In this document: positions 5,586-38,787 of the stretch, piece after piece
Layout: each line of letters starts with the position of its first letter
Numbering within the stretch: position 1 is the stretch's first letter
NCBI GenBank assembly: GCA_963849735.1
Contig: CAWKJE010000016.1
Coordinates: 54,086-118,085, forward strand
Length of the DNA: 64,000 bases
Origin: an uncultured delta proteobacterium
GTDB lineage: Bacteria > Myxococcota_A > Polyangia > Fen-1088
Direction of reading: 5' to 3'
The notes under the pieces: model-generated
What the model saw: only the letters and a program-made list of their open reading frames with translations
What the model was told of the DNA's origin: nothing
The model's database searches: none
Translations under genes and position numbers: made by a program

Positions 5586-5636
5586 CCTATTCGTGCAGCG
5601 TCGTTCCTCGTAAGATTCGTGGCCGGAGGCTCCGCC

Positions 5637-7121
5637 ATGATTCGAGATCCGCGCCGCACCGTTTCCATGCTGATCGCCGCCGTGGCTGCGCTATCGGCCA
5701 AGCCCGTGCTGGCTGCCTCGTTGCAGCAGGTGACGGACTGGGGGGCCACCGGCGTCCCCACCTACATCGCCATGTTCATCTATGTGCCCGACAAGCTGGC
5801 GACCAACCCGCCGATCCTGGTGGTTTCGCACTACTGCTCGGGAGATGCGGCCGGGGTTTTCTCCGAGGCCCAGGGCGGCGGCATCGTGGCGGCCTCCGAC
5901 CAATACGGCTTCATCATGATCTATCCGCAGAATCACCTCCCGGGCACCACCCGCAACTGCTGGGATGTGGGCTCGACCGCGTCGCTCACCCACAATGGCG
6001 GGGGCGACACCCAGGCCATCGCCGAGATGGTGCAATACACCATCACAACCTACAAGGCCAATCCCGACCGGGTGTACGCCACGGGGACTTCGTCCGGGGC
6101 CATGATGACGGAGGCCTTGCTGGCCGTCTACCCCGATGTGTTCAAAGCCGGCGCCGAGTTCTCGGGCGTGCCGGCCGGCTGCTGGTCCGACGGCTACGAC
6201 CCGAGCAATCAATGGAGCGGCAACTGCGCTACCGGCGTGACCACGTTCACGGCGCAGCAATGGGGTGACAAGGTGCGCGCCATGTATCCGGGATATTCCG
6301 GCTATCGTCCGCGCATCCAGCTTTGGCACGGCGCGGCCGACACCACCATAAGCCCCAACAATCAGACAGAAGCGATCAAGGAGTGGACCAACGTCCTCGG
6401 GCTCGGCAGCGACCCGACCTCGACCACCAGCGTGTCACTCAACAGCCACTCCTGGACCCGGCAAAGCTGGCAAAACGCCTGCGGCTACACGGTGCTCGAC
6501 GCCTGGCTGGAGGCCAATGGCCCGCACGGCACCGACGCCAACCTCAATGCGCAGTACGTGATCCCCTTCTTGGGGCTGGACAAGAGCGCGGCTACCGATC
6601 CGGAAATTGCCCAGTGCGGAACTACCGATGCCGGCACCCCCAGCGCGGACGGAGCGGTGGGCGGTGGGGGCGGCAGCAGCGAGGGCAGCGGCGGCAGCGG
6701 CGGCAGCGGTGGCGGCGCAGGGGCGGGCGGCAGCCCAAACACCGGCGGCAGAGGTGGCACCAGCAGCGCAGGGGGCGCGGCGGGTAGCGCAGCGGGCTCC
6801 GGGGGGAGCAAGAGTGGGAGCGGCGGAAGTCTCGGCAACGGCGGCGGCAGCACTAGTAGCGGCAGCACTAGTAGTGGTGGTACGAGCGCGGGCGGCGCTA
6901 ACGGAAGCAGCGGCGGCGCGAGCGCGGCGAGCGCCTCGGGCGGGTCGGCAAGCGGCGGTAGCGCCTCGGGCCAGGGTGGCTCGGCGAGCGGCGGCGCATC
7001 GGCGAGCGGGTGTAGCTGCAGGTTGGGGCAGAGGTCGGCTGCTCATCCACGCCGCGCCGAAGTGGCCATGGCCATGGCGCTATTGCTGCTGGCCTGGACG
7101 GGAAAGCGTCGCCGGGCCTAG
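5637..7121 (+). CDS. Secreted esterase of the PHB-depolymerase/feruloyl-esterase (CE1-like) family with a MYXO-CTERM-type tail
   Basis: GGAGG SD before the ATG at 5637, followed by a signal peptide. An esterase_phb-like core (HYCSGDAAGVFSEAQGGG...YATGTSSGAMMTEALLAVYPDVFKAGAEFSGVPAGCW) includes the GTSSG nucleophile elbow. A G/S-rich linker leads to the C-terminal GCSCRLGQRS...AMAMALLLLAWTGKRRRA. Confidence 0.75.
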   Translation: MIRDPRRTVSMLIAAVAALSAKPVLAASLQQVTDWGATGVPTYIAMFIYVPDKLATNPPILVVSHYCSGDAAGVFSEAQGGGIVAASDQYGFIMIYPQNHLPGTTRNCWDVGSTASLTHNGGGDTQAIAEMVQYTITTYKANPDRVYATGTSSGAMMTEALLAVYPDVFKAGAEFSGVPAGCWSDGYDPSNQWSGNCATGVTTFTAQQWGDKVRAMYPGYSGYRPRIQLWHGAADTTISPNNQTEAIKEWTNVLGLGSDPTSTTSVSLNSHSWTRQSWQNACGYTVLDAWLEANGPHGTDANLNAQYVIPFLGLDKSAATDPEIAQCGTTDAGTPSADGAVGGGGGSSEGSGGSGGSGGGAGAGGSPNTGGRGGTSSAGGAAGSAAGSGGSKSGSGGSLGNGGGSTSSGSTSSGGTSAGGANGSSGGASAASASGGSASGGSASGQGGSASGGASASGCSCRLGQRSAAHPRRAEVAMAMALLLLAWTGKRRRA

Positions 7122-7152
7122 ACCTGCTACCCTTCCCTACCCGGTGCCATGA

Positions 7153-7177
7153 CCGCTGCGCGTTGCCCGCGCAGGCC
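7153..7177. terminator. GC-rich hairpin downstream of the esterase gene
   Basis: CTGCGCG-ttgcc-CGCGCAG, a perfect 7-bp stem 35 bp after the stop. There is no clear U-tract, which is common in high-GC genomes. Confidence 0.3.
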
Positions 7178-7264
7178 ATGCGCTGGCGCTTAGAGTCAAG
7201 AGAATGCGGACTCTGCCCCCTTCTCATGCTCTGCCCCTGCAACGTTCTACAATAGAGCCCAGCC

Positions 7265-10200
7265 ATGAAGCCCAACGAGTTCAACTATTTGATCGCCGTG
7301 ACGCTTGCCACCCTGGCGAGCGCGTGTAACTCCCACCTCCTGCTCTCGTCGGGCGATCCCAACGTCGTGGTCATCAGCCAACCCACGATCGTCGGAGGAG
7401 GAGGAGGAGGAGCCCCCCCCCCCACCCCCACCCAAGAGTGATGCCGGAAGCTCGCCTTTCACCACCACCGTTACCCTCACGCCGGATGCTGGTCCCAAGC
7501 CGGTGGACACGGCCCCGCCGGTGGAAAATCTCTCCTGTCCGGCGGGCGAGGTCAGGCTGCACGTGCGCGACGTCTGGTCTGACCCCGTGGATCCGCCCAG
7601 CATGAAGACCCTGACCACTCCGCCCACCAGCGTGCAGATCATGGATCCCAACAACAACTACATCGTCTACGCCGCCCGCGTCGATGGCCCCAACTGCAGC
7701 TACTACTCGGTTTGCCTGCCGAACACCATTACCACCATCCAGCTCAAGCCGGTGGGTGCCGACGGCTGTGCCACCGGCAGCCAGTCGGGCAACTTCAACC
7801 TTTCGGCCTATACCAAGAACAGCGACATCTGGATCGAATACACCGGCACCGACGCCACCATCCAGGCCGACTACACCGCCTATCCCACCGCCAATGTCGG
7901 GCCCAACCAGTTCCACATCACCTCCGACAGCTCCACCCTCCAGTACCCCGCGTGCAAGATCGGCACGCCGCCTGACGAGACCACGCCCAGCGGCTACACC
8001 AAGGTCGAGTTCCGCTGGCCCTGGAACGATCCCACCGATCCCGCCACCCCCTACCCCGGCTCGGGCTGCCCGGTCAATTTCGCCAAAACCATGGGCTTCA
8101 GCGTGCCCCCCTACCCCTCGAGCCTCAGCGTTACCGGTCTCACCTGCCCCATGGAGGCCGTGCTCGAATTCCAGGACGGGCAATGCCCATGGTACTACGT
8201 GATGATCCCCAACAGCGACTGGCCGACCACCGGCACCGGGCCGTCGATCGTGTTCCGCTATCCCGACAACTCCAAGAACCTCTACACCAACAGCATCCAA
8301 CTCCCCGCCCGCGATCCGAGCCAGACCGAGTACTGGATCGCCTACGCCGGCGCCCCCGACAACACCATCGCCTCGGTGACGGTGTGCCAGGACTGGTCGC
8401 TGCAGCCCAACTCCTACTTCATCTACACCGCCAATCCCGGACCTGGCTATCAGAACTGCGGGGGCAGCGTGGCGGCCGTCGATCCTTGCAGCCCACCCCA
8501 GCCGGCCAATTACCACACCGTGCACTTCCGCTACCTCTGGGCCGGCCAGAAGACCTTCACCATGTTCCCCAGCCAGGACATAATGCCGAAGTGGATTGAG
8601 CTGGAAGTGACCCCCCCGAACGGCGGCGCGATCGAGGTCATCTGCCAGCACGAGCAGGAACGGCCCTGGTACGAATGTCCGGTGCCCGACACCGCCTTCA
8701 GCGCGACCACGACCTGGCGCGCGGTGGACAAGCTCCACAACCCGGAATGGAACACCGTCCAGCCCTGGCCGTTCGGGACCGCAGCGGCGACCCCGGGCGA
8801 ATACTGGATCCGCTGGTACTACGGTAAGCCCGACATACCGCGCAGCTCGCCCCCGCCCAATTTCATGATCTTCAACTACTACCCCGACGGGACCAACGGC
8901 GACTGGTCGGCCACTGGCAACTGGAACGACAGCATGTGCGCACCCAAGCCGCCCGCCACTCCGGTGGTGGTGGGCTTCAACCAGGGCGGATGGTTCCCCT
9001 ACAGTCAGACCCAATATCAGTACCCCTACGGCGGCTCGCTGGCCTACATCTACCCGCAGGCCAACCAGAGCCAGGTGCAGGACCTCTTCAATGCCTTCAC
9101 CTTCGAGCGCTACAATTTGTGGAAGCAGAACTGGGTCCTGACTGATACCAACGCCTGCGGCGCCGGGACGGCCCGGGTGTACAGCGATGACCCGACGGGA
9201 ACGGTGAGCGAGGGGCAAGGGTACGGCATGGCCATGGCGGCCGCCATCGGCGACAAGGACCTCTTTGATCAGCTCTGGAACTTCATCCGCGACTATCGCT
9301 CCGAGGCGAAGTACTGCGGCCTCATGGGCTGGATGTTCCCGGCGGCGGCGACTGACGCCACGGCTCAGTATTGCCAAACCCAGGACTCCTTCGCCCCCAG
9401 CGGGGGCGACCACGACAGCGCTTTCGACGGCGACGTCGACATCGGCATCGGCTTGCTCTTCGGTGCCCTGCAATGGCCGGAATACCTCAGCGCGGCCCAA
9501 GACTGGCTCACCCGCATGGAGTGCGAGGTCAACACGGCCTACGGCGACGGGTACAACTACCCCTCCGCCGGGGACAGCTGGAACAAGAACTGCGAAAACG
9601 ACACCCAGTGCGGCTACGACCCCAAGACGGTGAACCAAGTCTACCTGGATTACTATCCCCCGGGGTACTTCCGCGTGTTCGGCGACTTCTTGACCAAGTA
9701 CCCGCCCTCTTCCGGCAACAACGCCGCAAACGGCCAGAGCCATCACGACTTCTGGTACAAGACCGCCGAGACGGTGTGGAAATTGGTGGAGATTCTGCTA
9801 CGACCAAGCGGGCGTGCATCCCGGCCTCATGGGTGACCAAGCCACCATCCTCACCGCGTGCAGCTCGGGCGGCGGCGAGCCCTACGAGTGGGGCCGCGCC
9901 CTCTGGCGCCTTGCCATCGACGCCGCCTGGTTCGGCAACAACACCAGCCTGCCCGAAAACGCTCCCAATTCTTCCACTCACTACGCGGGCAAGTCGCAGA
10001 TCCAGGCCAAGATGGACAACATCCAGGACTTCTACGCCAACTTCTACAAGAAGAACCCGCCCGTAACGGACGCCAACCAGTTCTCGACCATCTGCGACCA
10101 GATGGGCACCGACGGGACCATCACCAACTGCGACCCCGCCTACGGCCACAACTCCTACACCGTCAACCTGGCCCTCTGCCCCTTCGCCACCCTGTTCAAC

Positions 10201-10506: not shown

Positions 10507-11304
10507 ATGAGTCAACGTTTCGCTTGGATTGCCTTCGCCACCGTCTTGGGTGCCGCGGGGCCCGCGCTTGCCATCACCAAGACTGACCGGCGCGCCAAGG
10601 AGAACGAGGCGCGCGAGGCATGCCTCGACGGCAACTACACCGGAGGAGTCGCCATCCTCTCTAAGCTGTTCGTCGAGACCAAGGACATGACGTACATCTT
10701 CAACCAGGGCCGCTGCTTCGAACAAAACCAGCGCTATCAGGACGCCATCGCGCGCTTTCGAGAGTACCTGCGCGCCGGGCGCAATAGCCCGGACGCCGCC
10801 GGCCAGGCCGAGGCCGAGCGGCACATCGCCGACTGCCAGGAGATGCTGGCCCAGGAGCACGCATCCCCCGCTACGCCTCCACCTGTCTCGGCCTCACCGC
10901 CCGCGACTCCTGCTGCGTCAGAGCCTGCCCCGACGCCCGGACCCGCCATCGTCGGCCGGCCCACGGCGGAGCCCGCTGCCACCGCCAGCGAGGCGGGGTT
11001 ACGCACGGGCGGCGTGGTAGTGGCGGCGGTTGGCGTCGCAGCCCTGGGCACCGGCGTCGCCCTCAACCTGAAAGCCAACAGCGCCACCGAGGCCATGTAC
11101 TCCACCAACGGCTACACCCAGGACTCCGACCGCAAGACCTATACCACCCTGGCCTGGGTCGGCTACGGGGTCGGCGCGGCCTGTCTCGCCACCGGTGCCG
11201 TCCTCTACACGGTCGGGCTCCGGGCCAGGGGGGGCAGCAACGTCGCGCTCGTCCCTGCCGTCGGCCCCACCTTCGCTGGCGCTGCCCTCGCAGGAGGATT
11301 CTGA
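10507..11304 (+). CDS. Hypothetical secreted/membrane protein (TPR-like N-domain, Pro-rich linker, two TM helices)
   Basis: Signal peptide MSQRFAWIAFATVLGAAGPALA. The helical region resembles one or two TPR units. A P/A/T-rich linker and predicted C-terminal TM helices follow. The stop overlaps the next start (ATGA), indicating translational coupling. Confidence 0.45.
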   Translation: MSQRFAWIAFATVLGAAGPALAITKTDRRAKENEAREACLDGNYTGGVAILSKLFVETKDMTYIFNQGRCFEQNQRYQDAIARFREYLRAGRNSPDAAGQAEAERHIADCQEMLAQEHASPATPPPVSASPPATPAASEPAPTPGPAIVGRPTAEPAATASEAGLRTGGVVVAAVGVAALGTGVALNLKANSATEAMYSTNGYTQDSDRKTYTTLAWVGYGVGAACLATGAVLYTVGLRARGGSNVALVPAVGPTFAGAALAGGF

Positions 11305-13223
11305 TGAAGACATCATTCCTCGCACGGCGAGCCCGTGCTCTGTCCGTCACACTCCTCGGCATCGCCTTGGGTGCCCTACCAGTCGCGGGTTGCTTCAAAG
11401 CGGCCCCCGACACTTCCCAGCTCAAGTGCACGACCCAGGCCGGCTGCCCCGCCGACTACTACTGCGCATCCGACCAAAAGTGCCACCTGGGGGCCGCAGA
11501 TGGGGGCGCGGGCTCCGGCGCAGGTGGCGCCGGGGGAGCTGCGCTCGACGGACCAGGCAATACCGGCGGCGCACGCGATGGCGCGTTGACGTACGGAGGG
11601 TCCGATGGCTCATCCGCGCTCACGGAGGGTGGGCCAAGCAGCCAAGGCGGAGGCGGAGTTGGCCAGGGCAGCCTTGGCTCGGGAGGAGTTGCTGGCGGTC
11701 CCGTAAACGGGGGCGCCTCTGGCGGCGCACTGCCGGGCTCTGGAGGCTCACCCGGCGACGCCAGCCACGGAACCGGAGGGATGGCTCCCGACGCTCCACT
11801 CTCCGCCGGGGGCGCTGGCTCGCCTGACGCGCTCATCACTCCCGATGCTTCGACCACGTTGGCCATAGGCGCAACGTGTACTAGCCCCAGCCAGTGCACG
11901 AGCGGCTACTGTGTCGACGGCGTTTGCTGCTCCGAGCCATGCAGCGGTCAGTGTCAATCGTGCAGTCAAGCCGGATCGCCTGGACAATGCGTTGCGATCA
12001 AGGGCTCTCCTATCGCGCCGCGGGCTGCCTGCGCCGGCAAGGGTACCTGCCAGGGGCAGTGCAACGGGAGCGGACAAGAGTGTACCTTCGACAACACCAC
12101 GGTCTGTGCGCCCCAGAGCTGCTCGCAGGGGGTGCGCACCAACAAGTCAATATGCGATGGCAAGGGCGACTGTCCAGTTCAGACCACCACCGCCTGCACC
12201 GACAACCAGTGCACAACCGACGGCACCGACTGCTCGACCTGCACCGACAATTCCTCGGCCACCACTTGCTCGGGCGGCCACTGCGGCCCGACAGTTGATA
12301 ACTGCGGCAACACGGTTAGCTGTGGGACCTGCGCCACCGGAACGTGCGTAAGCGGAACCTGCTGCGTCCCAAACTGCACCGGCAAGTGTGGCGGCGCCGG
12401 CGACACCTGCGGAGGAACATGCACCGGCACTTGCGGGGCCGGGAAGACCTGCGTGAACGAGTCATGCGTGTGTGCTCCGAACTGCACCAACAAGTGTGGC
12501 GGCGCCAGCGACGGGTGCGGAGGAACGTGTACCGGCACCTGCGGATCCGGACAAAACTGCTATCAGCAACAATGCTGCACTCCAGTCGGGCAGAGCCAAA
12601 CCTGCGGAACTGCCACGTGTGGCAAGGTGACTGACAACTGCGGCAACCAGGTTACCTGCGGCACCGGTACCTGCCCGTCGGGACAGACGTGCAACACCAG
12701 CGGGTCCTGCGAGTGCCCGCTCGGCAGCTATCTCTGCAGCACCTGCCTCGGCTGGGGTTTTCAATCGGGCGTCGGCTCGTGGGAAGTTAACACCACCATA
12801 CCGAACGCCATTTTGGGTAGCCTCGCTCAGGCCGCGCTGCATCCGCCGGATGCCACCAACTCTCTGACATTCTTTGCCAGCACGGATCCCAACGGTCCCA
12901 ACGCAGCGACTATCATGACCCCGTTGTGCTCAGGCGGCGGCGCGGTGAGCCTCAACGGGCTGACCTTGAGCCTGGAGATCTATGTCGACGCTACGCTCGA
13001 CGGCAGCACCATCATGTGGCTCGGTGAATACCAGGGTGGGGAACAGACGGGCGGTTCCTTGGGGGATGGCAGTACGCTGACCGCCGGCACGTGGTACAGC
13101 TTCACCGCAACCGGCCCCGTCAGCGACGCTCCGCCCTTGGATACGGTCTGGCTCATCATCGGCACGAGCTCCTCTTCCTCCTGGAGCGGCGACGTTTACC
13201 TGGCTGACATACAGTTCAAGTAG
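11304..13223 (+). CDS. Cys-rich-repeat secreted lipoprotein (myxobacterial CxxC-rich repeats) with a C-terminal beta-sandwich-like domain
   Basis: Lipoprotein signal (...LGALPVAGCF). There are more than 10 repeats of the type C-T/A-x-K-C-G-G-x-x-D-x-C-G-G-T-C-T-G-T-C-G-x-G-x-x-C, resembling the Myxococcales cysteine-rich repeat family. The C-terminal ~170 aa has a lectin/CBM-like character. Confidence 0.6.
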   Translation: MKTSFLARRARALSVTLLGIALGALPVAGCFKAAPDTSQLKCTTQAGCPADYYCASDQKCHLGAADGGAGSGAGGAGGAALDGPGNTGGARDGALTYGGSDGSSALTEGGPSSQGGGGVGQGSLGSGGVAGGPVNGGASGGALPGSGGSPGDASHGTGGMAPDAPLSAGGAGSPDALITPDASTTLAIGATCTSPSQCTSGYCVDGVCCSEPCSGQCQSCSQAGSPGQCVAIKGSPIAPRAACAGKGTCQGQCNGSGQECTFDNTTVCAPQSCSQGVRTNKSICDGKGDCPVQTTTACTDNQCTTDGTDCSTCTDNSSATTCSGGHCGPTVDNCGNTVSCGTCATGTCVSGTCCVPNCTGKCGGAGDTCGGTCTGTCGAGKTCVNESCVCAPNCTNKCGGASDGCGGTCTGTCGSGQNCYQQQCCTPVGQSQTCGTATCGKVTDNCGNQVTCGTGTCPSGQTCNTSGSCECPLGSYLCSTCLGWGFQSGVGSWEVNTTIPNAILGSLAQAALHPPDATNSLTFFASTDPNGPNAATIMTPLCSGGGAVSLNGLTLSLEIYVDATLDGSTIMWLGEYQGGEQTGGSLGDGSTLTAGTWYSFTATGPVSDAPPLDTVWLIIGTSSSSSWSGDVYLADIQFK

Positions 13224-13303: not shown

Positions 13304-15286
13304 CTACTTACCGTACCCGGCGGCGACTACGGTGACTTGCACGGCGTCTTCCGTGGCATCGGTCGGGTACCCGAAAACGATGGCCCCTTCATAGAAGGTT
13401 CCGTCGCTTTGGTTGGCGCCCCCGTTCGGTTTGCAGCAGTCGCCGCCGCAGCCAAGGATGAGCGCGCCTTGCTTCTTCATGGGGCTCCATCCATTTGCCG
13501 GAAGGGAACCCTGATAATACGTGCTCAAGCTGCCGGATGTTGCGTCGCCCCCACGAAGTACGAACTCCGTGGTCCCGTTGTTCCTGAGCACAGCAGTTAC
13601 ATAGGCGCTGGTCTGGGTCGGGTCGCTCTGGTTCTTGCCATATTGCGGCGAGCCTTCGGAGAACAACCCAGCCTCCAGATCGGCCATCACCCACGGGCCC
13701 GACCCAGCCCCGGTGCCCCAGGCCGCGGTCGAGCTGAAGTTGATGGCATCCATAGCGGCCGGGCCATCCCCAGTCCGATCGGTTTCACTATTCCCGTAGT
13801 CGAAGCAACAACCCCCGTTGGAGTGCGTGCCGCTGGTCACCATGTAGATGCCCTCGGGCTGGGCGCCGGTGGCCATGCCCGTTTTGGAGCCGTCGTGCCA
13901 GTAGCAATTACCGGGTTTGATGAAGAGCGAGTAGACTTTGTGGCCGCCCACGGTGAGCGACTCATTGGTCGCATTGGCCGGGCTGCTGGACGTCGAGGCC
14001 GGGACTTCAGTCGACCCCTGGTACCACAGGTCGTTGCCCTTGCCCGACTGGTCGTACACCACTGTTATCACGCAGGTGGAGCCCGCGCAGAAGGTGTCCT
14101 GGGGCCCTGAGTCGGCGATGCCACCCGGGGCAAGGGTCAGTATATCCTGCGTCGTATTGTCCGAGCGCCTCACCTGGTAGAGCTTGCCGCTGTAGGCAGC
14201 ATAGAGAGCGCGCACCGTGCTGTGCGCGGCCACGCACGGGGTGTTGGCGGCACCATAGATATCGCAAGGCCCCATGGCTCCGCTCGCCCCCGCCGCTCCG
14301 CCATCTGCACCTCCCGAGCCAGGCGATCCGCCCGCGTTGCCTCCGGCCGCCGTGGAGCTGCCACCCGTGTGACCGCTAGCGCCGCCCGCACCGCTGGCTC
14401 CTCCCCCATGGGAACCACCTGCACCCGCCTGCCCACCACCCGCTCCCCCGCTAGCCGCACTGCTCTTTTGCAGCACGATCGATCCGGTCAGGGTTGGGCT
14501 GGTGCTCTGGGGAGTCAAGGTGAGCCCGGAAGCGGTAGCGCAATACTGGTATTGGCCATTGCCATCGATGGTCATCGTGTTGCCCGACGTGGCGTAGTTG
14601 CCATTGTTTGAGGCGCTGGGGGATACCAGGCCAATTCCCCCTGACTGACTTACCGTGCCAGTGCAGTTGCATCCGCCACCGCTCGCCGACTCGCAATCCA
14701 GGGCGGTGTAGCCAAGAGCACTGCCGAGCAGGCTGGCCCAGCCCGAGCATCCCACCTGCGTCCCCGACACCAGCAAACACGAGGCCGCCAGGGGGAACTG
14801 CTCGGTGCCCTGTGTGGTTGTGTTGTCCGTGTAGGTGTAAGTGGGTCCGGGGCTGGCCGTCCACGTTCCCGTCACCTGCAAGGACCCGGTCACCGACACC
14901 GATGGGCAACTGGGGCCGGAGCCGATATCCTGCAAGTTCAACTGCCCGGTGACGCCCAGACAACCCGAGGCTACGCTCCAGGTTCCCACCAGGTCGCCTC
15001 CACAGGGGGTGGCGCTAGAGCTGGCGGCACAGGTGCTGCCGGCCTGGGATCCACCTTTGCCGCCGGCGCTTCCTCCCGCGCCGCTTCCCGCGGCACCGTT
15101 GCCAGCACCGCCCGAGCTCGTAGCTCCCGCAGCCGTGCTCCCACCTCTGCCGCTTGCGCCACCCGAGCCGCTACCTCCGCCTCCCCCATTGGAAGAGGAT
15201 TTCACGGAACAACCGGTGGACACGACCGCAAGACAAAGTGCGGCATTCAGCAGGGCTGACCTGGGGAAAGCGTGGGTACGTGACAT
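13304..15286 (-). CDS. GH54-like alpha-L-arabinofuranosidase lipoprotein; a novel N-terminal 8-Cys domain replaces CBM42
   Basis: Start ATG at 15286 with a GGAG SD. Lipoprotein signal MSRTHAFPRSALLNAALCLAVVSTGCS. G/S linker, then a ~190-aa Cys-containing domain. The C-terminal ~320 aa is co-linear with the fungal AbfB (GH54) catalytic domain (GPCDIYGAANTPCVAAHSTVRALYAAY...CCFDYGNSETD...GSGPWVMADLE...TFYEGAIVFGYPTDATEDAVQ). The protein stops right after the catalytic domain, with no CBM42. The track ORF to 16162 is an antisense over-extension. Confidence 0.75.
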   Translation of the reverse strand: MSRTHAFPRSALLNAALCLAVVSTGCSVKSSSNGGGGGSGSGGASGRGGSTAAGATSSGGAGNGAAGSGAGGSAGGKGGSQAGSTCAASSSATPCGGDLVGTWSVASGCLGVTGQLNLQDIGSGPSCPSVSVTGSLQVTGTWTASPGPTYTYTDNTTTQGTEQFPLAASCLLVSGTQVGCSGWASLLGSALGYTALDCESASGGGCNCTGTVSQSGGIGLVSPSASNNGNYATSGNTMTIDGNGQYQYCATASGLTLTPQSTSPTLTGSIVLQKSSAASGGAGGGQAGAGGSHGGGASGAGGASGHTGGSSTAAGGNAGGSPGSGGADGGAAGASGAMGPCDIYGAANTPCVAAHSTVRALYAAYSGKLYQVRRSDNTTQDILTLAPGGIADSGPQDTFCAGSTCVITVVYDQSGKGNDLWYQGSTEVPASTSSSPANATNESLTVGGHKVYSLFIKPGNCYWHDGSKTGMATGAQPEGIYMVTSGTHSNGGCCFDYGNSETDRTGDGPAAMDAINFSSTAAWGTGAGSGPWVMADLEAGLFSEGSPQYGKNQSDPTQTSAYVTAVLRNNGTTEFVLRGGDATSGSLSTYYQGSLPANGWSPMKKQGALILGCGGDCCKPNGGANQSDGTFYEGAIVFGYPTDATEDAVQVTVVAAGYGK

Positions 15287-15536
15287 AAAGCTCCTCTTGC
15301 CGTGACGGATAGAGTCGGGCCAATGGGCCATCGCCTGAAGACACGCCGGGACATGGGATCGCGACATGTTCGTCTCATCTATTGTCAGGACCAAGCAGAA
15401 TTGCCAATCGCCCCGCCCTCGTGGGTGCGGCCGCCCCCCGCTGCCGAGACGTCGCCGCGTGCGGGCCGGACACTCCGCCCACGTGCGTGCGGCCGCCCCT
15501 GCCCATTCACGCGGGCGACGGTGTCTAGCTACCAAG

Positions 15537-17654
15537 ATGACACCCACCTCAGCGCTACCCAGGGCTTCCTCGGTTCTTGCCCTCCTCCTGGCCGCCACCC
15601 TAGGCTGCTCGACCAATAACTCGACCCCTCCGGCTGGCAGCGGCGGCTCGGGACGCGGGGGCAGCGGGGAAGGCGGCCGGCCGGCGAGCGGCGGCATCGT
15701 GGCCAGCGGAGGGTCCTCCGCCAGCGGCGGCACCACCTCGACCGGGGGAATGGCAGCCGGGGGAAAGGCGAGCGGCGGCACGGCCGGAAGCGGAGGCCAG
15801 GCCCCGGCGGGCGGGGCGGGAGGTGGCTTGGGCTCGGGCGGTGCCAGCGGCTCCGGGACCGGGACCGGAACCGCAACGGGCGGCGGGGCGGGGACGGGCG
15901 GCCAGAACGGCGGAGCCACCGGCCCGGGCGGCAAGGGCTCGGCCGGTGCCACGGGCACGGGCGGGAGCAGCGGGCCGTCGACGACCTCGGCGTGCACGCC
16001 GTCATGCGCCAACAAGACCTGCGGCAGCGACGGTTGCAATGGCACCTGCGGCGGGTGTCCTCCCACCCAGATGTGTGGCGCCAGCGGCAGCTGCCAAACC
16101 CCGAGCGGCTCGGGCATTACCGTCGATACTACCTCCCAGCTCACCCCGATTTCCCCCGACATCTACGGCGTGGCCTTCGCTACTGCCACGGGCGACGACT
16201 CTTACAAGGTCGCCACCCTGGACCGCTGGGGCGGCGATGCCGAGACCAGCTACAACTGGCAGAAGGATCTGCACAACTCCGGCGGAGACTGGATGTGCGC
16301 GAACTACACCGGGGGTGGGACCGGGAACAGCAGCGACACCTTCGTGCAGACCAACAAGACCTGGGGGATCGACACCCTGATGACCATTCCCATCACGGGC
16401 TGGCTGGCCAACGTGGCCACCTCTACCGATACAACCTACAGCTCACTCCTCGGTCAGAACCTCAGCTTCTGCAACTATCCCCAGCTCGCCGACGGCGGGC
16501 TCCTGACCTCGAGCACCTGTTGCCAGGCCATCGGCGCCCAGGAATCGACCCTGGTCGACAAGGGCTCGAACCACCTCGACACCAGCTTCATGGGTAACTG
16601 GGTGACACACCTGGTCTCGACCTTCGGATCGGCGGCCAGTGGCGGGGTGAAGTATTACCAGCTCGACAACGAGCCCGACAACTGGCAGGGCCTGCGCCAG
16701 GACATCTATCCCTCGCTCTATCCTCCGGGCACCAACTGCATGGATTACTCGGTGGCGATTGCCTCGGGCAACGAGGCGGGCGCATCGCCCAACGAGGACA
16801 TCATGAACCGCTCGGTGGCCTACGCTACCGCCATCAAAACCGCCGATCCCACGGCCCAGGTGCTGTTCCTGTCCGTCATGAACCCGGACGACACCATCAA
16901 CCTGATGCAGACCGAGTGCGGGGTCGGGAGCTGGGGCAGCGCCACCGTCCCCTACACCGCCACCAACTCTTACGCCATGGCCATGCTGGCCAGGGGCAAG
17001 CAATACGAGAGCACCAACCAGCAGCGCATCTTCGACTGCATGGACACCCATTACCCTGGCACCGCGCAGGCCATGTGGACAAACACCTTCTCTAAGTTCC
17101 AGGGCTGGATCGACTCCAGCTACCCCGGCACCGCCACCTGCATCAGCGAGTACAACGTGGCCAACGACACTTCCGACCCCACCACGACCAGCCAGGAGGC
17201 CGACTATCTCGGCACCTTCGGGGTGATGGGCGTCCGCCTGGCCGCGTACTGGACAACCCTTACCCATACCGACTCGAGCAGCAACAGCCTCGTGCACAAT
17301 TACACCTACAACGCCTTCGCCATGTTCCGCAATTACGACGGCGCGGGCAGTACCTTCGGTAACGTTTCCGTGGGCGCGGCCAGCTCGTACAGCGGCGTGC
17401 ATGCCTACGCCGCCACCGATTCGGCCACCAGCCCGAGCAAGCTCTGGCTCATGCTCGTCAACACCGGCACCACCGCCCAGAGCAGCATGACCATCGCCAT
17501 CAAGGGCTTCACCCCCGCTGCCACCGCCCAAGTCTATCAATCGACCGGCGGCGCCGCACCTGCGGCCGGCACCAGCGTGGCCATCGGCAACGGCCAGATC
17601 TCGGGCGTGTCCATCGCCGCCAACACCGTCATGCTCATCGCGCTGACCCACTGA
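15537..17654 (+). CDS. GH44-family glycoside hydrolase lipoprotein (endoglucanase/xyloglucanase class) with one N-terminal Cys-rich repeat
   Basis: Lipoprotein signal MTPTSALPRASSVLALLLAATLGCS. A G/S/A linker, then CTPSCANKTCGSDGCNGTCGGC. The GH44 hallmark is ATLDRWGGDAETSYNWQKDLHNSGGDW, followed by a TIM barrel and a C-terminal beta-sandwich. The track ORF starts at 15366 in the leader. Confidence 0.7.
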   Translation: MTPTSALPRASSVLALLLAATLGCSTNNSTPPAGSGGSGRGGSGEGGRPASGGIVASGGSSASGGTTSTGGMAAGGKASGGTAGSGGQAPAGGAGGGLGSGGASGSGTGTGTATGGGAGTGGQNGGATGPGGKGSAGATGTGGSSGPSTTSACTPSCANKTCGSDGCNGTCGGCPPTQMCGASGSCQTPSGSGITVDTTSQLTPISPDIYGVAFATATGDDSYKVATLDRWGGDAETSYNWQKDLHNSGGDWMCANYTGGGTGNSSDTFVQTNKTWGIDTLMTIPITGWLANVATSTDTTYSSLLGQNLSFCNYPQLADGGLLTSSTCCQAIGAQESTLVDKGSNHLDTSFMGNWVTHLVSTFGSAASGGVKYYQLDNEPDNWQGLRQDIYPSLYPPGTNCMDYSVAIASGNEAGASPNEDIMNRSVAYATAIKTADPTAQVLFLSVMNPDDTINLMQTECGVGSWGSATVPYTATNSYAMAMLARGKQYESTNQQRIFDCMDTHYPGTAQAMWTNTFSKFQGWIDSSYPGTATCISEYNVANDTSDPTTTSQEADYLGTFGVMGVRLAAYWTTLTHTDSSSNSLVHNYTYNAFAMFRNYDGAGSTFGNVSVGAASSYSGVHAYAATDSATSPSKLWLMLVNTGTTAQSSMTIAIKGFTPAATAQVYQSTGGAAPAAGTSVAIGNGQISGVSIAANTVMLIALTH

Positions 17655-17779: not shown

Positions 17780-18793
17780 ATGAAAATCCGACTAGTCGCA
17801 TCCCTTTTGGCCCTTCTCGCCGGGCTCTTGCCCACCGCGCTTGCCCAGGGCAAGGAGGTTTCCCTGCTCAACGTATCGTACAATCCCACCCGCGAGCTCT
17901 ATAGCGCGCTCAACGCCGCCTTCGCCCGCTCCTGGAAGGCCAAGACTGGCGATGACGTCAAGGTCAGCCAATCCCACGGCGGCTCGGCCAAGCAAGCCCG
18001 CTCGGTCATCGACGGCTTGGATGCCGACGTGGTCACCTTGGCCCTGGCTTACGACATCGACGCCATCGCCGAGAATACCGGCAAGCTGCCCGCTGACTGG
18101 CAGAAGCGGCTACCCTCGAATGCCTCGCCCTACACCTCGACCATCGTGCTAGTGGTGCGCCCGGGCAATCCCAAAGCCATCAAAGGCTGGGACGACCTGG
18201 TGCGGCCCGACATCAAGGTGATAACCCCCAATCCCAAGACCTCGGGCGGCGCGCGCTGGAACTACCTGGCGGTGTGGGGATACGCCACGAGTAAGTGGGG
18301 CGGTGACGAGGCCAAGGTGCGCGATTTCGTCGCCCGCCTCTATCGCAACGTCCCCGTGCTGGATTCCGGAGCGCGCGGCGCCACCACCACCTTCGCGCAG
18401 CGCCATATCGGCGACGTGCTCATCGCCTGGGAGAACGAGGCGCTCATGCTGCAAGCCGAGCTCGGGCGCGACAAGATCGAGATCGTGGTGCCCACGCTGA
18501 GCATCTTGGCCGAGCCCCCGGTGGCAGTGGTGGACAAGAACGCCGCTCGGCACGGCACGGCCGCCCTGGCCAAGGCCTACCTCGACTACCTGTACTCGAC
18601 CGAGGGCCAGGAAATCATCGCCAAGAGCTTCTACCGGCCGCGCGCGCCCGAAGTCGCGGCCCGGTACGCCTCGCGCTTCCCCAAGCTCAAGCTGCTCACC
18701 GTCGACCAAGACTTCGGCGGCTGGCAGAAGGCGCAGAGGACGCATTTCGCGGACGGCGGCACCTTCGACCAGCTCTACTCGGCGGAGAGGTGA
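17780..18793 (+). CDS. sbp: Sulfate/thiosulfate ABC transporter substrate-binding protein
   Basis: Signal peptide. Strong family resemblance ([11 protein letters not shown]...[32 protein letters not shown]...[19 protein letters not shown]). Confidence 0.85.
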
Positions 18794-18916
18794 CGCGCGC
18801 CCACTACGGCGCGACGAGCCACCCGCACCCGACCGTCAAGCTCATAGACGCCTGTCCGTTTTACCAGAATTGGGGTTGACAGGCACGATGAGCGGCGCCC
18901 ACACTTTATCTCGAGC

Positions 18917-19789
18917 ATGAACACCCCGGCAGCCTCGGATGCAAGGTCGCGAGCAGCGCGCTCGGGCTGGCGCGTTGGACCGTTACCTGGATTCCACCCT
19001 ACCTTGGGCTTCGTCGTGCTCTATCTCAGCCTGGTGGTGCTCATGCCCCTGGCCGCCCTGGTGCTGAAGGCTTCTGGTCTCGGATGGTCCGAGCTGTGGA
19101 CCACGATCAGCAGCACCCGCGCGCTGGCAGCCTACCGCCTCAGCTTCGGTGGCGCCCTCGTCGCCGCCGCCATCAACGCTGGCGCAGGCTTCCTCCTGGC
19201 CTGGGTTCTGGTGCGTTACCGCTTCCCGGGCCGCGCCCTGGTGGATGCCGTGATCGATCTTCCCCTGGCTCTCCCCACCGCGGTAGCCGGGATTGCCCTG
19301 ACCGCCATCTACGCTCCCACCGGCACCTTGGGCGCCTTCCTCGAAAGCCACGGGGTCAAGGTGGCCTTCTCCCCGCTCGGAGTCGTGCTGGCCATGGTCT
19401 TCGTTGGCCTCCCCTTTACCGTGCGCGCGGTGCAGCCGGTCCTCATGAGCCTGGACCCTCAACTCGAAGAAGCGGCAGCCGTCCTCGGCGCATCACGCCT
19501 GCGCACCTTTCTGCGCGTCATCCTGCCCGTGCTCATCCCCCCCGTGCTCACGGGCTTCGCCCTGGCGTTCGCGCGCGCCGTGGGTGAGTACGGCTCGATA
19601 GTCTTCATTTCGGGCAACATGCCCAACCAGACCGAGATCGTGCCCCTGCTCATCGTCACCAAGCTGGAGCAGTTCCAGTACCAGAATGCCGCCGCGCTCG
19701 CTCTCGTCATGCTAGCGGGCTCCCTCGTGACCTTGATGGGGGTGAATCTACTGCAAGCCTGGAGCCGGCGCGGGAGCGACCATGGCTGA
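18917..19789 (+). CDS. cysT: Sulfate ABC transporter permease
   Basis: Six-TM ABC permease with the EAA loop (EAAAVLGASRLRTFLRVILP). It is the first of two adjacent permeases after sbp. Confidence 0.8.
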   Translation: MNTPAASDARSRAARSGWRVGPLPGFHPTLGFVVLYLSLVVLMPLAALVLKASGLGWSELWTTISSTRALAAYRLSFGGALVAAAINAGAGFLLAWVLVRYRFPGRALVDAVIDLPLALPTAVAGIALTAIYAPTGTLGAFLESHGVKVAFSPLGVVLAMVFVGLPFTVRAVQPVLMSLDPQLEEAAAVLGASRLRTFLRVILPVLIPPVLTGFALAFARAVGEYGSIVFISGNMPNQTEIVPLLIVTKLEQFQYQNAAALALVMLAGSLVTLMGVNLLQAWSRRGSDHG

Positions 19790-20714
19790 CCCCGGCGAGG
19801 CGGCGGCGTCCACCCAAGGGGGGGCGGCCCCGGGCGCCCCGGCCGACTTGCCGCAAGCGCTCACCCGGATCCGCGCCCGACCGGCCCTGCTCGGCGAGTC
19901 ACTAGCAACCCGCGCGGTGCTCATCTCGATCGCGCTCGTCTTCCTCGTCCTGGTCGTGATCCTGCCCCTCTTGGCCGTCTTCTCCCAGGCCCTGCAGAAG
20001 GGTGTTGGGGGCTACCTCGAGGCCCTCGCCAAGCCCGAAACCGTGTCCGCCATCAAGCTCACCCTGCTGACCGCGCTCTTGGTGGTGCCCCTCAACACCG
20101 TCTTTGGCTTGGCGGCGGCCTGGCTCATCGCCAAGTTTCGCTTTCCCGGCCGCAACCTCCTCATCACCCTCATAGATCTGCCGTTCTCGGTATCCCCCGT
20201 CATCTCCGGGCTGCTCTTCATCTTGCTCTTCGGCGGACGAGGTTGGTTCGGCGACTGGCTGGCCGACCACAACCTCAAGATCGTCTTCGCCACCCCCGGC
20301 ATCGTGCTCGCCACCGCCTTCGTCACATTCCCCTTCGTCGCGCGCGAAGTATTGCCAGCTCTGCAAGCGGCTGGGGACGCGGAAGAAGAGGCCGCCCTGA
20401 CTCTCGGGGCGGGATCCTGGCGACTGCTCCGGCAGATTACCCTACCCAAGATCCGTTGGGCCCTGCTCTACGGCATCATTTTGTGCAACGCCCGTGCGAT
20501 GGGCGAGTTTGGTGCGGTATCGGTGGTGTCAGGACATATCCGCGGTGTCACCAACACGGTGCCCCTGCAGGTCGAGATCTTGTACAACGAATACGACTTC
20601 GTGGGCGCCTTTGCCGTGGCGTCGCTCCTCACCTTGCTCGCCCTGGCCACCCTGGTGGTGAAGAAGGTGGCCGAGCACGTTCAGGCCCGCCATGAACCGG
20701 GAGACTCGCGATGA
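19782..20714 (+). CDS. cysW: Sulfate ABC transporter permease
   Basis: Second permease, with EEAALTLGAGSWRLLRQITLP. It overlaps cysT by 8 nt and cysA by 4 nt. Confidence 0.8.
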   Translation: MADPGEAAASTQGGAAPGAPADLPQALTRIRARPALLGESLATRAVLISIALVFLVLVVILPLLAVFSQALQKGVGGYLEALAKPETVSAIKLTLLTALLVVPLNTVFGLAAAWLIAKFRFPGRNLLITLIDLPFSVSPVISGLLFILLFGGRGWFGDWLADHNLKIVFATPGIVLATAFVTFPFVAREVLPALQAAGDAEEEAALTLGAGSWRLLRQITLPKIRWALLYGIILCNARAMGEFGAVSVVSGHIRGVTNTVPLQVEILYNEYDFVGAFAVASLLTLLALATLVVKKVAEHVQARHEPGDSR

Positions 20715-21790
20715 CAGCGACTTCTAATGACCTGGTGGTCGAACAGTTGGCGAAGCGCTTTGCCACCCACAGCCCCGCGGTGGCCAATGCCAGCTTTACC
20801 GCCCCGGCGGGGGGATCACCACCCTCCTCGGTCCCTCGGGCTCGGGCAAGACCACCGTGCTACGCATCATCGCCGGTCTGGAAACGGCCGACGCGGGCCG
20901 AGTGCGGGTGGGCAGCGCTGATGTCACGGAGGTCCCGGTACAAAAGCGCGGCTTCGGCTTCGTCTTCCAGGGCTTCGCCCTCTTTGGCCACATGACGGTG
21001 GCGGACAACATCGCCTTCGGGCTGCGCACCCACCGAGTGCCACGGGCGGAAGCGAACAACCGTGTCGCCGAGCTCTTGCAGCTAGTCCAGCTCGAGGATT
21101 ATGGCCAGCGCTACCCGGCGCAACTCTCCGGCGGCCAGCGCCAACGGGTCGGCTTGGCGCGCGCGCTGGCCCCAAGGCCCATGGTCTTGCTCCTCGACGA
21201 GCCGTTCGGTGCCCTTGACACCCGCGTCCGCGTCGAGCTGCGCGAATGGCTGCGGCGGCTGCACGAGGCCACTCACCTCACCACTATCCTGGTCACCCAC
21301 GACCAGGAAGAGGCCTTGGACCTGTCTGACCAGCTAGTGATCATGGACGGCGGCAGAGATCCAGCAGGTGGGCGCCCCCGCCGAGATCTACGAAAGACCT
21401 GCCACCCCCTTCGTAGCTTCCTTTCTGGGGGTGGCCAACGTGTTGCGCGGCCAGGTGCGGGCGGGACGTGCGACCATGGGGTCGCTGTCCATGCAAGCTC
21501 CCGCCCACATCCGCGACGGCGCATCCGTGCGGGTCATTGTTCGCCCCCACGACATACGCGTCCTGCCCAACACGAGCGCCGCCTTGCCCACGGGCGCCAA
21601 CAACGCCGTCATCCGGCGTGTGGTCAGCCTGGGCGCCTACGTCAAGCTTGACCTCAGCCTGCCCAACCGCGACCTCATCACCGTTCATGTTCCCCGACGC
21701 GAGTTCGCCAATCTAGCTCTCGAGCAGGGCGAGCAAATCGTGCTCGATCTGAGCGAAGCCCGCGTGTTCGAGGAAGACTACGCCATCTGA
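20711..21790 (+). pseudogene. cysA: Sulfate ABC transporter ATP-binding protein CysA, interrupted by two 1-nt frameshifts as sequenced
   Basis: The N-terminus (MTATSNDLVVEQLAKRF...) is in frame 2 up to a G6 run at 20809-20814. The Walker A GGITTLLGPSGSGKTT, LSGGQRQRV and the Walker B LLLDEPFGALD are in frame 1. At ~21350 (ggcagagatcc) the sequence shifts again into the frame that encodes the CysA C-terminal TOBE domain (QIQQVGAPAEIYERPATPFVASFLG...). Deleting one base at each site restores a canonical ~360-aa CysA. Confidence 0.7.
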
Positions 21791-21868
21791 TCTGCCCCTC
21801 CTCTGCTCTGCCCCTCTCGCCTCCCCCTGAATCGCGGCACACGACGGCCGGGGCCCGGCCACCGCGCC

Positions 21869-29960: not shown

Positions 29961-29975
29961 GGGTCGACGAGGCAA

Positions 29976-32329: not shown

Positions 32330-32348
32330 CCAGAGAGGAGACGCCATC

Positions 32349-38783: not shown

Positions 38784-38787
38784 GGCA

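Follow-up and report, generated by a model that had tools for sequence, protein, structure and literature searches.

A ten-cysteine domain of Polyangia GH54 arabinofuranosidases, a candidate carbohydrate-targeting module

Results

Two GH54 genes in a Polyangia contig

The window, i.e. the whole stretch of DNA that was analysed, comprises 64,000 nt (contig CAWKJE010000016.1, forward-strand positions 54,086-118,085, assembly GCA_963849735.1) and stems from an uncultured delta proteobacterium (GTDB Bacteria; Myxococcota_A; Polyangia; Fen-1088), a soil myxobacterium. It contains two paralogous genes of the same architecture, here named A and B (Table 1). The product of gene A, whose N-terminus reads MSRTHAFPRSALLNAALCLAVVSTGC, is composed of a signal, linker 1, a domain with ten cysteines (ten-Cys domain), linker 2 and a GH54 catalytic domain, which is followed by the stop codon. 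Signal peptides ending in a lipobox-like xxG/A-C motif suggest that both proteins are lipoproteins; in the gene A product, Cys26 would be the lipidated residue.

Genes for the degradation of plant polysaccharides are located upstream of gene A, while a cluster for arabinose catabolism and uptake (araBAD, LamB, epimerase, SSF) lies at a distance of 11 kb. The divergently oriented GH44 lipoprotein gene probably has its true start near 15537, judging from the sequence. An ABC transporter beside the GH44 gene was considered as a sugar system and rejected. Its binding protein belongs to SBP_bac_11, which we take to be sulfate-type, and it adjoins a Cys/Met PLP enzyme.

Table 1. Positions of the genes and protein regions within the window
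Feature	Position	Strand	Evidence
Gene A, 660-aa probable lipoprotein	13304..15286	-	ORF, translation, Pfam, PDB alignment
Gene A signal peptide, residues 1-26, ends in lipobox-like VSTG-C	15209..15286	-	sequence
Gene A linker 1, residues 27-84, G/S/A-rich, low complexity	15035..15208	-	sequence
Gene A ten-Cys domain, residues 85-274, 190 aa	14465..15034	-	translation
Gene A linker 2, residues 275-337, G/S/A-rich, predicted disordered	14276..14464	-	sequence; pLDDT <30
Gene A GH54 catalytic domain, residues 338-660	13307..14275	-	PF09206; 6sxt/1wd3 alignment
Gene A stop codon	13304..13306	-	sequence
Gene B, 661-aa paralog, same architecture as gene A	52045..54030	+	Pfam, sequence
Gene B signal/lipobox	52045..52122	+	sequence
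Gene B linker 1	52123..52317	+	sequence
Gene B ten-Cys domain, residues 92-278	52318..52878	+	alignment to gene A domain
Gene B linker 2	52879..53058	+	sequence
Gene B GH54 catalytic domain	53059..54027	+	PF09206
Plant-polysaccharide genes upstream of gene A (context)	615..9836	mixed	Pfam
GH43	615..2108	-	Pfam
AraC-type regulator	2192..3187	-	Pfam
GH27 alpha-galactosidase	3264..5585	+	Pfam
Esterase	5619..7121	+	Pfam
GH8	7305..9836	+	Pfam
GH44 lipoprotein gene, divergent from gene A	15366..17654	+	PF12891, E 1.3e-27
Arabinose catabolism/uptake cluster (context)	26398..35303	+	Pfam
FGGY kinase, araB-like	26398..27999	+	Pfam
araA	28329..29960	+	Pfam
Class II aldolase, araD-like	29976..30674	+	Pfam
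LamB-type porin	30797..32329	+	Pfam
Aldose 1-epimerase	32349..33512	+	Pfam
SSF symporter	33597..35303	+	Pfam

The catalytic domains

Both genes are members of family GH54 as judged by full-length matches to PF09206 (ArabFuran-catal). A Pfam scan assigned residues 340-658 of gene A (E 1.4e-127, profile 1-314/315) and residues 339-660 of gene B (E 6.6e-81, profile 1-315/315) to this family. The gene A domain is co-linear with residues 1-317 of Aspergillus AbfB (6sxt/1wd3, 482/483 residues; E ~1e-88), contains all of the motifs GPCDIY, CCFDYGN, GSGPWVMADLE and TFYEGA, and its stop lies two residues past the aligned region. Pfam searches at E<=1 with the two proteins and with the ten-Cys domain alone did not match CBM42 (PF05270), and the predicted fold of the ten-Cys domain is not the beta-trefoil of CBM42. 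Two statements of the initial annotation were borne out by these data: the C-terminal ~320 aa of gene A are a GH54 domain co-linear with fungal AbfB, on which the Pfam and 6sxt/1wd3 alignments agree, and the protein ends right behind it without CBM42.

At the catalytic positions of AkAbfB, presumably E221, D297 and the vicinal disulfide C176-C177, the alignment revealed the E of VMADLE, the D of CGGDCC and the CC of GGCCFDYGN in gene A, with GDFE, GGDNS and ACCWDFGD at the corresponding sites of gene B. By alignment, the Glu nucleophile, the Asp acid/base and the vicinal Cys-Cys are conserved in both genes. GH54 enzymes of the AkAbfB type use a retaining chemistry mediated by Glu and Asp (PMC6887791). 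The two proteins are predicted to possess alpha-L-arabinofuranosidase activity, with which the co-location with araBAD is consistent.

The ten-Cys domain had been described as standing "in place of the usual C-terminal CBM42". This wording treats the fungal enzymes as the standard case and overstates the oddity of the protein, because bacterial GH54 enzymes commonly lack CBM42. This module is absent from all of the 120 relatives closest to the GH54 domain, which are bacterial wherever the source is named; their accessory parts are ricin-type modules, T9SS tails, a dockerin, the ten-Cys domain, or nothing annotated. In actinobacterial relatives, ricin-type lectin modules (PF14200/PF00652) occupy the positions that are held by the ten-Cys domain in Polyangia.

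The ten-Cys domain and its predicted fold

A ~190-aa domain between G/S linkers was recovered as annotated, except that its start had been set to 14464, one base off the in-frame position 14465. The domains of genes A and B can be aligned residue by residue (48% identity; E 1e-38 to 1e-40 in tblastn), as had been claimed for the paralog at 52045..54030 and within the 40-50% identity that had been expected. The number of conserved cysteines had to be corrected from eight to ten, all of which align between the two genes. The conserved stretches quoted previously (PCGG-GTW-V-SGCL, TDNTTT-G-EQ, GGGC-C--TV-Q etc.) were all found in the alignment, and the agreement of the two sequences over these stretches is far beyond chance. 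By contrast, the catalytic domains of the two genes share only 38% identity. No third copy of the domain was detected in the window by tblastn.

Modules of this family are ~185-190 aa long, presumably extracytoplasmic, rich in Thr, Ser and Gly (S+T+G = 45% in gene A) and almost uncharged. All ten cysteines are kept in 138 of 176 full-length instances and presumably form five disulfides; the co-loss of cysteines across the family, with the first and third Cys as the variable positions, did not define any pairs. Modelled alone, the gene A domain yielded a fold with a pLDDT of 94.3, which is mostly antiparallel beta with one main helix in the middle of the domain and loosely resembles that of lipocalins/calycins. 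The residues G17-T18-W19 are situated at the start of strand 17-29, G17 being invariant and W19 present in at least 90% of the members, but such a short motif alone is weak and the role of the Trp may be purely structural. Conserved aromatic residues are few (W19, W58, Y147, Y162/Y164). In a two-domain AlphaFold model of gene A, calculated from a shallow alignment, linker 2 had a pLDDT <30 and the pTM was 0.55. Because the linker is disordered and the pTM is only 0.55, fixed docking of the ten-Cys domain onto GH54 is not predicted, which is a weak negative without PAE. The ~60-residue G/S linkers and the confident stand-alone fold rather argue for autonomy. The domain is a contiguous, non-catalytic module within a carbohydrate-active enzyme that is predicted to fold independently, and its earlier interpretation as a functional module holds in the sense of an autonomous, linker-flanked and conserved unit.

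Database searches with the ten-Cys domain gave no match in Pfam and NCBIfam at E<=1, and both full proteins gave PF09206 only. A profile search of PDB sequences yielded only a chance match to a coat protein (E 0.79); none of the Pfam CBM models and PDB chains matched the domain. No close structural relative was found by Foldseek at E<=1e-3, and in structure comparisons lipocalin-type structures aligned weakly to 73-99 of the 190 residues. Comparison of the domain profile with a Lipocalin_4/DUF5640-like segment of the representative P0152 by hhalign revealed no relationship (probability 0.15%). Weak Lipocalin_4/DUF5640 matches among the long representatives are probably not part of the ten-Cys domain; they most likely originate from a separate N-terminal segment of P0152. 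Literature searches on GH54 in myxobacteria/Sorangium, on bacterial GH54/CBM42 and on lipocalin-like CBMs revealed nothing on the domain. Neither a significant Pfam match nor misaligned cysteines, both of which had been named beforehand as findings against the proposal, were encountered.

Distribution, architectures and gene neighbourhoods

A profile search retrieved 2130 cluster representatives at 50% identity. Among the 150 of 2130 that were inspected, a sample leaning to relatives of the GH54-fused copy, all named sources are uncultured Polyangia/Myxococcales. The ten-Cys domain is not peculiar to genes A and B; it represents a large, Polyangia-restricted and so far unannotated family. The commonest form among the listed members is a free-standing putative lipoprotein of ~230-350 aa, and the lipobox-like pattern [LVIAT][AGS][GA]C also occurs in family members. 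Public gene calls often start within the ten-Cys domain, which hides it from domain surveys and poses a practical annotation problem.

Scanning a genome collection with a tightened family alignment revealed 35 genome loci, of which 26 intact and two frameshifted ones have the domain N-terminal to GH54. It is C-terminal to GH54 in L030 and P0131, in the latter with a spacer of only ~4 residues and hence at the position of CBM42 in fungi. Two to three tandem copies exist in P0063 to P0069. Other non-catalytic companions are Lcl_C and unassigned ~200-aa modules; the unassigned modules of P0142, P0117, P0065 and P0063 matched neither the ORFs of the window nor Pfam. Proteins with the domain carried no catalytic Pfam family other than GH54, which was present on 11 of 28 long representatives and was, among the listed profile-search matches, the only Pfam partner of the domain.

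Twelve domain genes that had been called as free-standing were sampled. GH54 genes adjoin five of them (P0034 locus, L040, L041, L044, L046), one (P0023, L001) is a frameshift-split fusion, and three have no glycoside hydrolase nearby. The domain genes of L040 and L041 lie within araB/araA/araD clusters, and the P0034 locus further holds GH51, GH39-CBM6 and an AraC regulator. Fused genes adjoin araA, SSF, LamB and epimerase genes at L021 and L024. The same gene set as in the arabinose cluster of the window flanks domain genes in other genomes. Among the Pfam-annotated neighbours, SusC/D-type genes were absent; only LamB-type porins and SSF symporters were present.

Discussion

It is proposed that the products of genes A and B are GH54 alpha-L-arabinofuranosidases tethered to the membrane of a Polyangia (Myxococcota) bacterium. 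In cis, their ten-Cys domain would bind a plant polysaccharide decorated with arabinofuranose (arabinan, arabinoxylan or arabinogalactan) and thereby keep this substrate close to the catalytic domain. Free-standing lipoprotein copies beside GH54 genes would act in trans as surface glycan-binding proteins. The chances that the domain is a new non-catalytic module targeting arabinan or arabinoxylan, in cis or in trans, appear to be about even. A more far-reaching interpretation is put forward tentatively, namely a new CBM family with a disulfide-stapled, calycin-like barrel as yet unused among CBMs, which would be specific for Araf-glycans, confined to Polyangia, and used both fused to GH54 and as a free surface lipoprotein in arabinose loci.

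The CBM42 of fungal GH54 enzymes has a substrate-targeting role and the ricin-type modules of the actinobacterial enzymes are presumed to have the same. The suggestion of the initial annotation that the domain is a substitute carbohydrate-binding module finds indirect support in architecture and gene neighbourhood. Its occurrence on either side of GH54 and in tandem copies resembles the modular behaviour of CBMs, and it is fused to GH54 in some genomes and encoded separately beside it in others (Rosetta-stone pattern). On the other hand, no likeness in sequence or structure to known CBMs was found in Pfam, PDB and Foldseek searches. Lipocalin-like barrels classically bind small hydrophobic ligands rather than polysaccharide, and we know of no CBM family with a lipocalin-like fold. 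The scarcity of conserved aromatics and the free-standing genes without a nearby glycoside hydrolase also speak against glycan binding.

It is conceivable, albeit unlikely, that the domain is a specific protein partner which binds or stabilises GH54 (cleft extension, folding, export or regulation) instead of contacting a glycan itself, free-standing copies forming complexes with adjacent domain-less GH54 enzymes. Such a pattern of fusion in some genomes and separate neighbours elsewhere is classically seen with interacting proteins; among the members seen, GH54 is the sole catalytic partner, and P0131 has hardly any linker between the domain and GH54. However, in genes A and B the domains are parted by long disordered linkers and the model gave no sign of docking. 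Arrays of tandem copies fit poorly, as do proteins in which the domain is joined to Lcl_C or another module but not to GH54, and the three free-standing copies with neither GH54 nor another glycoside hydrolase in the vicinity. It seems equally improbable that a calycin barrel holds arabinose, an arabino-oligosaccharide, a feruloyl group or a lipid in its calyx, for product capture and hand-over to a porin or transporter or for envelope association. The G-T-W motif at the first strand and the position of domain genes beside porin and transporter genes in ara clusters would suit such a function, yet the likeness to lipocalins is weak and partial, was not significant in Foldseek, and was confirmed neither by Pfam lipocalin models nor by hhalign. 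Moreover, the very polar, uncharged composition is unlike that of a lipid binder, and tandem copies and enzyme fusion are more typical of polymer-binding modules.

Least probable is a spacer or envelope-anchoring domain, i.e. a protease-resistant, disulfide-stapled stalk that holds the enzyme on the surface or in the matrix. The domain of genes A and B is indeed placed next to the predicted lipid anchor, with a flexible linker on either side, and shares its richness in Cys, Thr and Ser with many stalk modules of cell surfaces. However, cell-surface anchoring, which the initial annotation had offered as an alternative, fits poorly because the proteins already possess a predicted lipid anchor and the position of the domain varies; in L030 and P0131 it is distal to the anchor. 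It is also the sole folded domain of many putative lipoproteins, is more conserved between genes A and B than the catalytic domain, and shows an association with GH54 and ara genes that is unexpected for a generic spacer.

Polyangia are abundant degraders of plant biomass in soil, and the majority of the proteins that they secrete lack annotation. The ten-Cys domain is absent from the curated Pfam and NCBIfam libraries, widespread in Polyangia and mostly found with GH54 and arabinose genes. Its importance lies in the size of a family of 2130 representatives that has no Pfam/NCBIfam match and is tied to GH54 arabinofuranosidases and L-arabinose catabolism. If arabinan or arabinoxylan is bound, the domain would found a CBM family of its own, probably with a fold new to CBMs, it would explain the targeting of myxobacterial GH54 enzymes that lack CBM42 or CBM13, and myxobacteria would also deploy free-standing glycan-binding lipoproteins. 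Should the interpretation as a new CBM family be true, it would provide, by analogy, a myxobacterial counterpart of the surface glycan-binding proteins (SGBPs) of Bacteroidota.

The likeness is one of organisation only: as with the SGBPs, the free-standing ten-Cys lipoproteins appear to be non-catalytic, and their genes neighbour those of glycoside hydrolases, porins and transporters for a single glycan. The two groups differ in phylum, fold and outer-membrane transport context, SGBPs being Ig-like/beta-sandwich chains, and the SusC/D-type genes of that context are missing from the Pfam-annotated neighbours in Polyangia. Within the calycin superfamily, the bacterial lipocalin-like lipoproteins BACUNI_01346 (4QRL), BT_0869 (3HTY) and potempin E (8EHC) align to 70-78 of 190 residues, which was not significant in Foldseek. 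By comparison, the ten-Cys domain is about twice as large, has ten cysteines, carries its helix in the middle instead of at the C-terminus and does not match any Pfam lipocalin model.

Fungal AkAbfB (1WD3/6SXT) consists of a GH54 beta-sandwich and a C-terminal CBM42 beta-trefoil, and the catalytic domain of gene A is co-linear with the fungal one over its whole length. This type of enzyme is a two-module protein with one non-catalytic accessory module (PMC6887791), and the same is true of genes A and B. However, their accessory module resembles CBM42 neither in sequence nor in predicted fold, it is in the family usually N-terminal and joined by a long G/S linker, and the proteins have a bacterial lipoprotein-type signal and lack CBM42. 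The actinobacterial GH54 enzymes are closer, since their catalytic domains are 66-69% identical to that of gene A and the accessory module can be located at either end. What separates the two groups is the nature of this module, which is a known beta-trefoil lectin of the ricin type (PF14200/PF00652, presumably CBM13) in the actinobacterial enzymes and an unclassified ten-Cys beta domain in those of Polyangia.

The ten-Cys domain and its predicted fold

The domain that precedes the catalytic part of the GH54 enzymes of genes A and B forms a genuine family that is widespread and, it appears, has not been described before. Pfam and NCBIfam scans at E<=1 returned no family for it, a 64-sequence domain profile gave only a chance match against all PDB chain sequences, its homologues carry the public name "hypothetical protein", and full-text literature searches found nothing on it. 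The initial annotation had called the domain novel, and this view holds, as no Pfam family was matched and the Cys residues of the paralogs align. By tblastn, the window contains only two copies, those of genes A and B, which align position for position at 48% identity (E about 1e-38), confirming that the paralog shares the domain; the catalytic domains are 38% identical. Each copy contains ten Cys, all of them aligned, and not eight as had been reported, which was the sole factual error. Of 176 non-redundant instances of full length, 138 have the complete set of ten; variation concerns the first and the third Cys, and disulfides are presumably formed. The composition of the gene A copy is strikingly polar and uncharged (S+T+G 45%, D+E+K+R+H only 4%).

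The AlphaFold2 model of the domain, calculated from the 64-sequence alignment, is confident (mean pLDDT 94.3, pTM 0.86) and comprises some eleven antiparallel strands, of which three span 13-16 residues, and one main helix at residues 96-107. At best, this predicted fold can be called calycin-like, and no solved structure is closely related to it. The G-T-W conserved at its first strand is reminiscent of the lipocalin G-x-W motif; a sequence-level link to lipocalin families, sought with Pfam and with hhalign against a Lipocalin_4-like segment, was not found.

Organization of genes A and B

Both genes follow the same plan (see table). PF09206 (GH54 catalytic) matched residues 340-658 of gene A at E 1.4e-127, covering nearly the entire profile, and gene B at E 6.6e-81 (Pfam). 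Residues 337-658 of gene A are co-linear with residues 1-317 of Aspergillus AbfB (6sxt and 1wd3, 482/483 residues; PDB sequence search, E about 1e-88), and every motif quoted earlier for this co-linearity is present in the alignment. In this alignment, the nucleophile and the acid/base of AkAbfB are matched by Glu in VMADLE and Asp in CGGDCC, and its vicinal disulfide by the neighbouring Cys pair in GGCCFDYGN. The enzymes of genes A and B are ordinary new members of the known GH54 family. AkAbfB uses retaining chemistry by Glu/Asp and consists of two domains, catalytic and CBM42 (PMC6887791). Gene A stops two residues beyond the AbfB-aligned region and Pfam detected no CBM42 (PF05270) in it even at E<=1, so that the reported absence of this module is correct. 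The ten-Cys domain had been placed at 14464-15034; it does lie there, but this start is one base out of frame and has to be 14465. Lipidation and localisation of both products, and of the family, are predicted from sequence.

The public protein P0206 is gene A of the window called from an internal GTG (MGTWSV...), with 561 instead of 660 aa. Its catalytic domain is otherwise identical but has Asn for Asp in GPWVMA[D/N]LE (residue 536, about 13673..13675), two residues ahead of the Glu that corresponds to the AkAbfB nucleophile; strain variation or a difference in assembly may account for it.

Features of the window (nucleotide positions, or residues where indicated) and gene orders at loci with the ten-Cys domain (L, fetched genome loci; P, public homologous proteins)
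Feature	Position	Strand	Description
Gene A	13304..15286	-	ATG at 15286; 660 aa
Gene A signal peptide	residues 1-26	-	terminates in lipobox-like VSTG-C, by sequence
Gene A linker 1	residues 27-84	-	G/S/A-rich
Gene A ten-Cys domain	residues 85-274, 14465..15034	-	190 residues
Gene A linker 2	residues 275-337	-	G/S/A composition
Gene A catalytic domain	residues 338-660	-	GH54
Gene B	52045..54030	+	paralog of gene A
Gene B ten-Cys domain	52318..52878	+
639-aa protein	11304..13223	+	directly beside gene A; probable lipoprotein
GH44 gene	15366..17654	+	divergent from gene A; short Cys-rich unit ahead of catalytic domain
ABC system	17780..24364	+	SBP_bac_11, two BPD_transp_1 permeases, ABC_tran, then Cys/Met-metabolism PLP enzyme
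L-arabinose module	26398..35303	+	araB-like FGGY kinase, araA, araD-like class II aldolase, LamB-type porin, aldose 1-epimerase, SSF symporter; complete; Pfam
Three adjacent genes	35319..45019	-	AAA_27/SMC_N (1204 aa), metallophosphoesterase (559 aa), SNF2-family helicase (1332 aa)
Gene B neighbour	47700..50315	+	large protein, no Pfam match
Gene B neighbour	50269..51525	+	large protein, no Pfam match
Gene B neighbour	54316..55554	+	large protein, no Pfam match
P0034 locus			GH39-CBM6, GH51, GH54, domain, unknown, GH39, GH54, AraC
L040			fused domain-GH54, GH39, araB, GH54, domain, GH54, porin-like gene, regulator, araA, araD
L041			SSF, epimerase, LacI, araA, araD, araB, domain, convergent GH54
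L044			GH54 gene overlaps domain gene by 4 nt
L046			flanked on both sides by GH54 fragments
L001			fusion split by frameshift

Family size and architectures

With the domain alone as query, a word-indexed search yielded 62 proteins (E 2e-50 to 8e-16), most of them of 230-330 aa with signal peptide, lipobox, G/S linker and domain, ending in ...TGTIVLQKQ-stop. When 1.84 billion cluster representatives were searched exhaustively with a profile, 2130 matched at E<=1e-3, of which 899 reached E<=1e-10 and 244 reached E<=1e-30, so that the domain, initially described from two paralogs, is far from unique to them; 150 of the 2130 were inspected, a sample leaning to relatives of the GH54-fused copy. 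Scanning one genome per species revealed 35 loci, several copies per genome, all from uncultured Polyangia, Polyangiaceae, "Myxococcales" or delta-proteobacterial MAGs. At these loci, 26 intact and two frameshifted genes encode the domain followed by GH54, and in all 46 fetched loci 31 of 51 domain-bearing ORFs also encode GH54, the sole catalytic Pfam family on the domain-bearing proteins inspected. The order is reversed in L030 and P0131, the latter with a spacer of only about four residues and the domain in the position that CBM42 occupies in fungal enzymes. Two or three tandem copies occur in P0063 to P0069, small Cys-rich modules precede the domain in L015 and L018, and two Lcl_C/DUF1566 domains accompany it in L011 (4001..5545). 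Modules of ~200 aa without family assignment are joined to it in P0142/P0161, P0117/P0098 and P0065, and a MopE-type Cu-binding motif (Pfam) in one protein, probably P0081 by its sequence.

At least three partner modules of ~130-200 aa recur without a Pfam match (identities: P0142-C/P0161-C 71%, P0098-mid/P0117-C 32%, P0063-N/P0068-N 56%) and are additional Polyangia surface modules lacking annotation. L006 (3527..7910) and L019 each have a tandem pair of domain-GH54 fusion genes and another GH54. At the single arabinose locus L040, one fused gene is accompanied by a domain gene standing alone and by two GH54 genes that lack the domain; the system is, as judged from these loci, locally expanded.

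Gene neighbourhoods

Upstream of gene A, the window encodes GH43, an AraC-type regulator, GH27, an esterase and GH8, and the arabinose module lies eleven kb downstream of it. The same arabinose gene set recurs near domain/GH54 genes on other Polyangia contigs. Neighbourhoods were inspected for 12 homologues called free-standing and located on long contigs: five adjoin GH54 genes and one more is a fusion that has been split. GH53 galactanase is found near two, GH8 with a beta-helix protein near one, and the remaining three have nothing relevant among their neighbours. Fused genes adjoin araA/SSF (L024) or SSF-LamB-epimerase (L021). Fusion in some genomes and adjacency in others, together with these neighbourhoods, indirectly connect the domain with GH54 and with the use of L-arabinose, which is the strongest functional evidence at hand.

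Other genes of the window deserve mention. The GH44 gene probably starts further downstream than listed; a signal of lipoprotein type (MTPTSALPRASSVLALLLAATLGCS) begins near 15537. The 639-aa protein has long G/S tracts, a ~190-aa C-terminal region, many small Cys-rich repeats (C..G.CG...D.CG..V.CG.C-like) and no Pfam match; a 412-aa neighbour of gene B shows a long G/A linker besides a lipoprotein-type signal, and its C-terminal domain of ~200 aa has no assignment. The ABC system, presumably sulfate-type from its family set, separates the glycoside hydrolase genes from the arabinose cluster and has no relation to the ten-Cys domain. The three genes at 35319..45019 may form a module for DNA repair or a defence-like function.

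Possible function

The domain behaves like a carbohydrate-binding module (CBM): it is predicted to fold independently, is bounded by linkers and non-catalytic, can precede or follow the catalytic domain or be repeated in tandem, is specific to a single enzyme family and substrate pathway, and is more conserved between the paralogs than the catalytic domain. A role in substrate targeting is therefore favoured, and we give about an even chance to a putative module for arabinofuranosyl-decorated plant glycans, acting in cis or in trans. When fused, it would target GH54 to the substrate in cis; when free-standing, it would be a surface glycan-binding lipoprotein acting in trans. The CBM suggestion of the initial annotation thus gains indirect support.

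Against substrate targeting count the lack of similarity found to known CBMs, the few conserved aromatic residues and the bias of the 150 inspected representatives to GH54-fused relatives. Calycins classically bind small hydrophobic ligands, which also speaks against it, and the domain might instead capture products or bind phenolics or lipids; despite the lipocalin-like G-T-W, we regard this as improbable. A GH54-specific protein partner would accord with GH54 as the sole catalytic family found with the domain, but is similarly doubtful: in a two-domain AlphaFold model (27-sequence alignment) the pTM of 0.55 and the disordered linker (pLDDT below 30) mean that the domain is not predicted to dock onto GH54 in a fixed manner, a negative that is weak because only 27 sequences were aligned and PAE is lacking. 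A stalk or anchor, to be set beside the lipobox-linker architecture on one side and the higher conservation of the domain on the other, is very unlikely. If the favoured substrate-targeting module is indeed a CBM, it would constitute a new family with a fold that, to our knowledge, known CBMs do not use. In any case, the domain is a well-defined experimental target with clear predictions.

Comparison with other GH54 enzymes

With the catalytic domain of gene A as query, at least 7066 homologues were obtained. None of the closest 120 carries CBM42; its absence is therefore normal for bacterial GH54, and the proposal that the domain stands in place of the usual CBM42 overstates the oddity. The ten-Cys domain, whole or as a piece, is present on 33 of the 120, and nearly all of these matches start with the first residue of the protein as called. 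Public calls of domain-GH54 fusions often begin inside the domain, N-terminal truncation being systematic in high-GC low-complexity linkers, and the domain is thereby hidden from surveys. A few of the 120 bear a T9SS tail or a dockerin, and the actinobacterial members possess ricin-type modules, N- or C-terminal. The slot that the ten-Cys domain occupies on GH54 is thus the one held by established lectin modules in other lineages.
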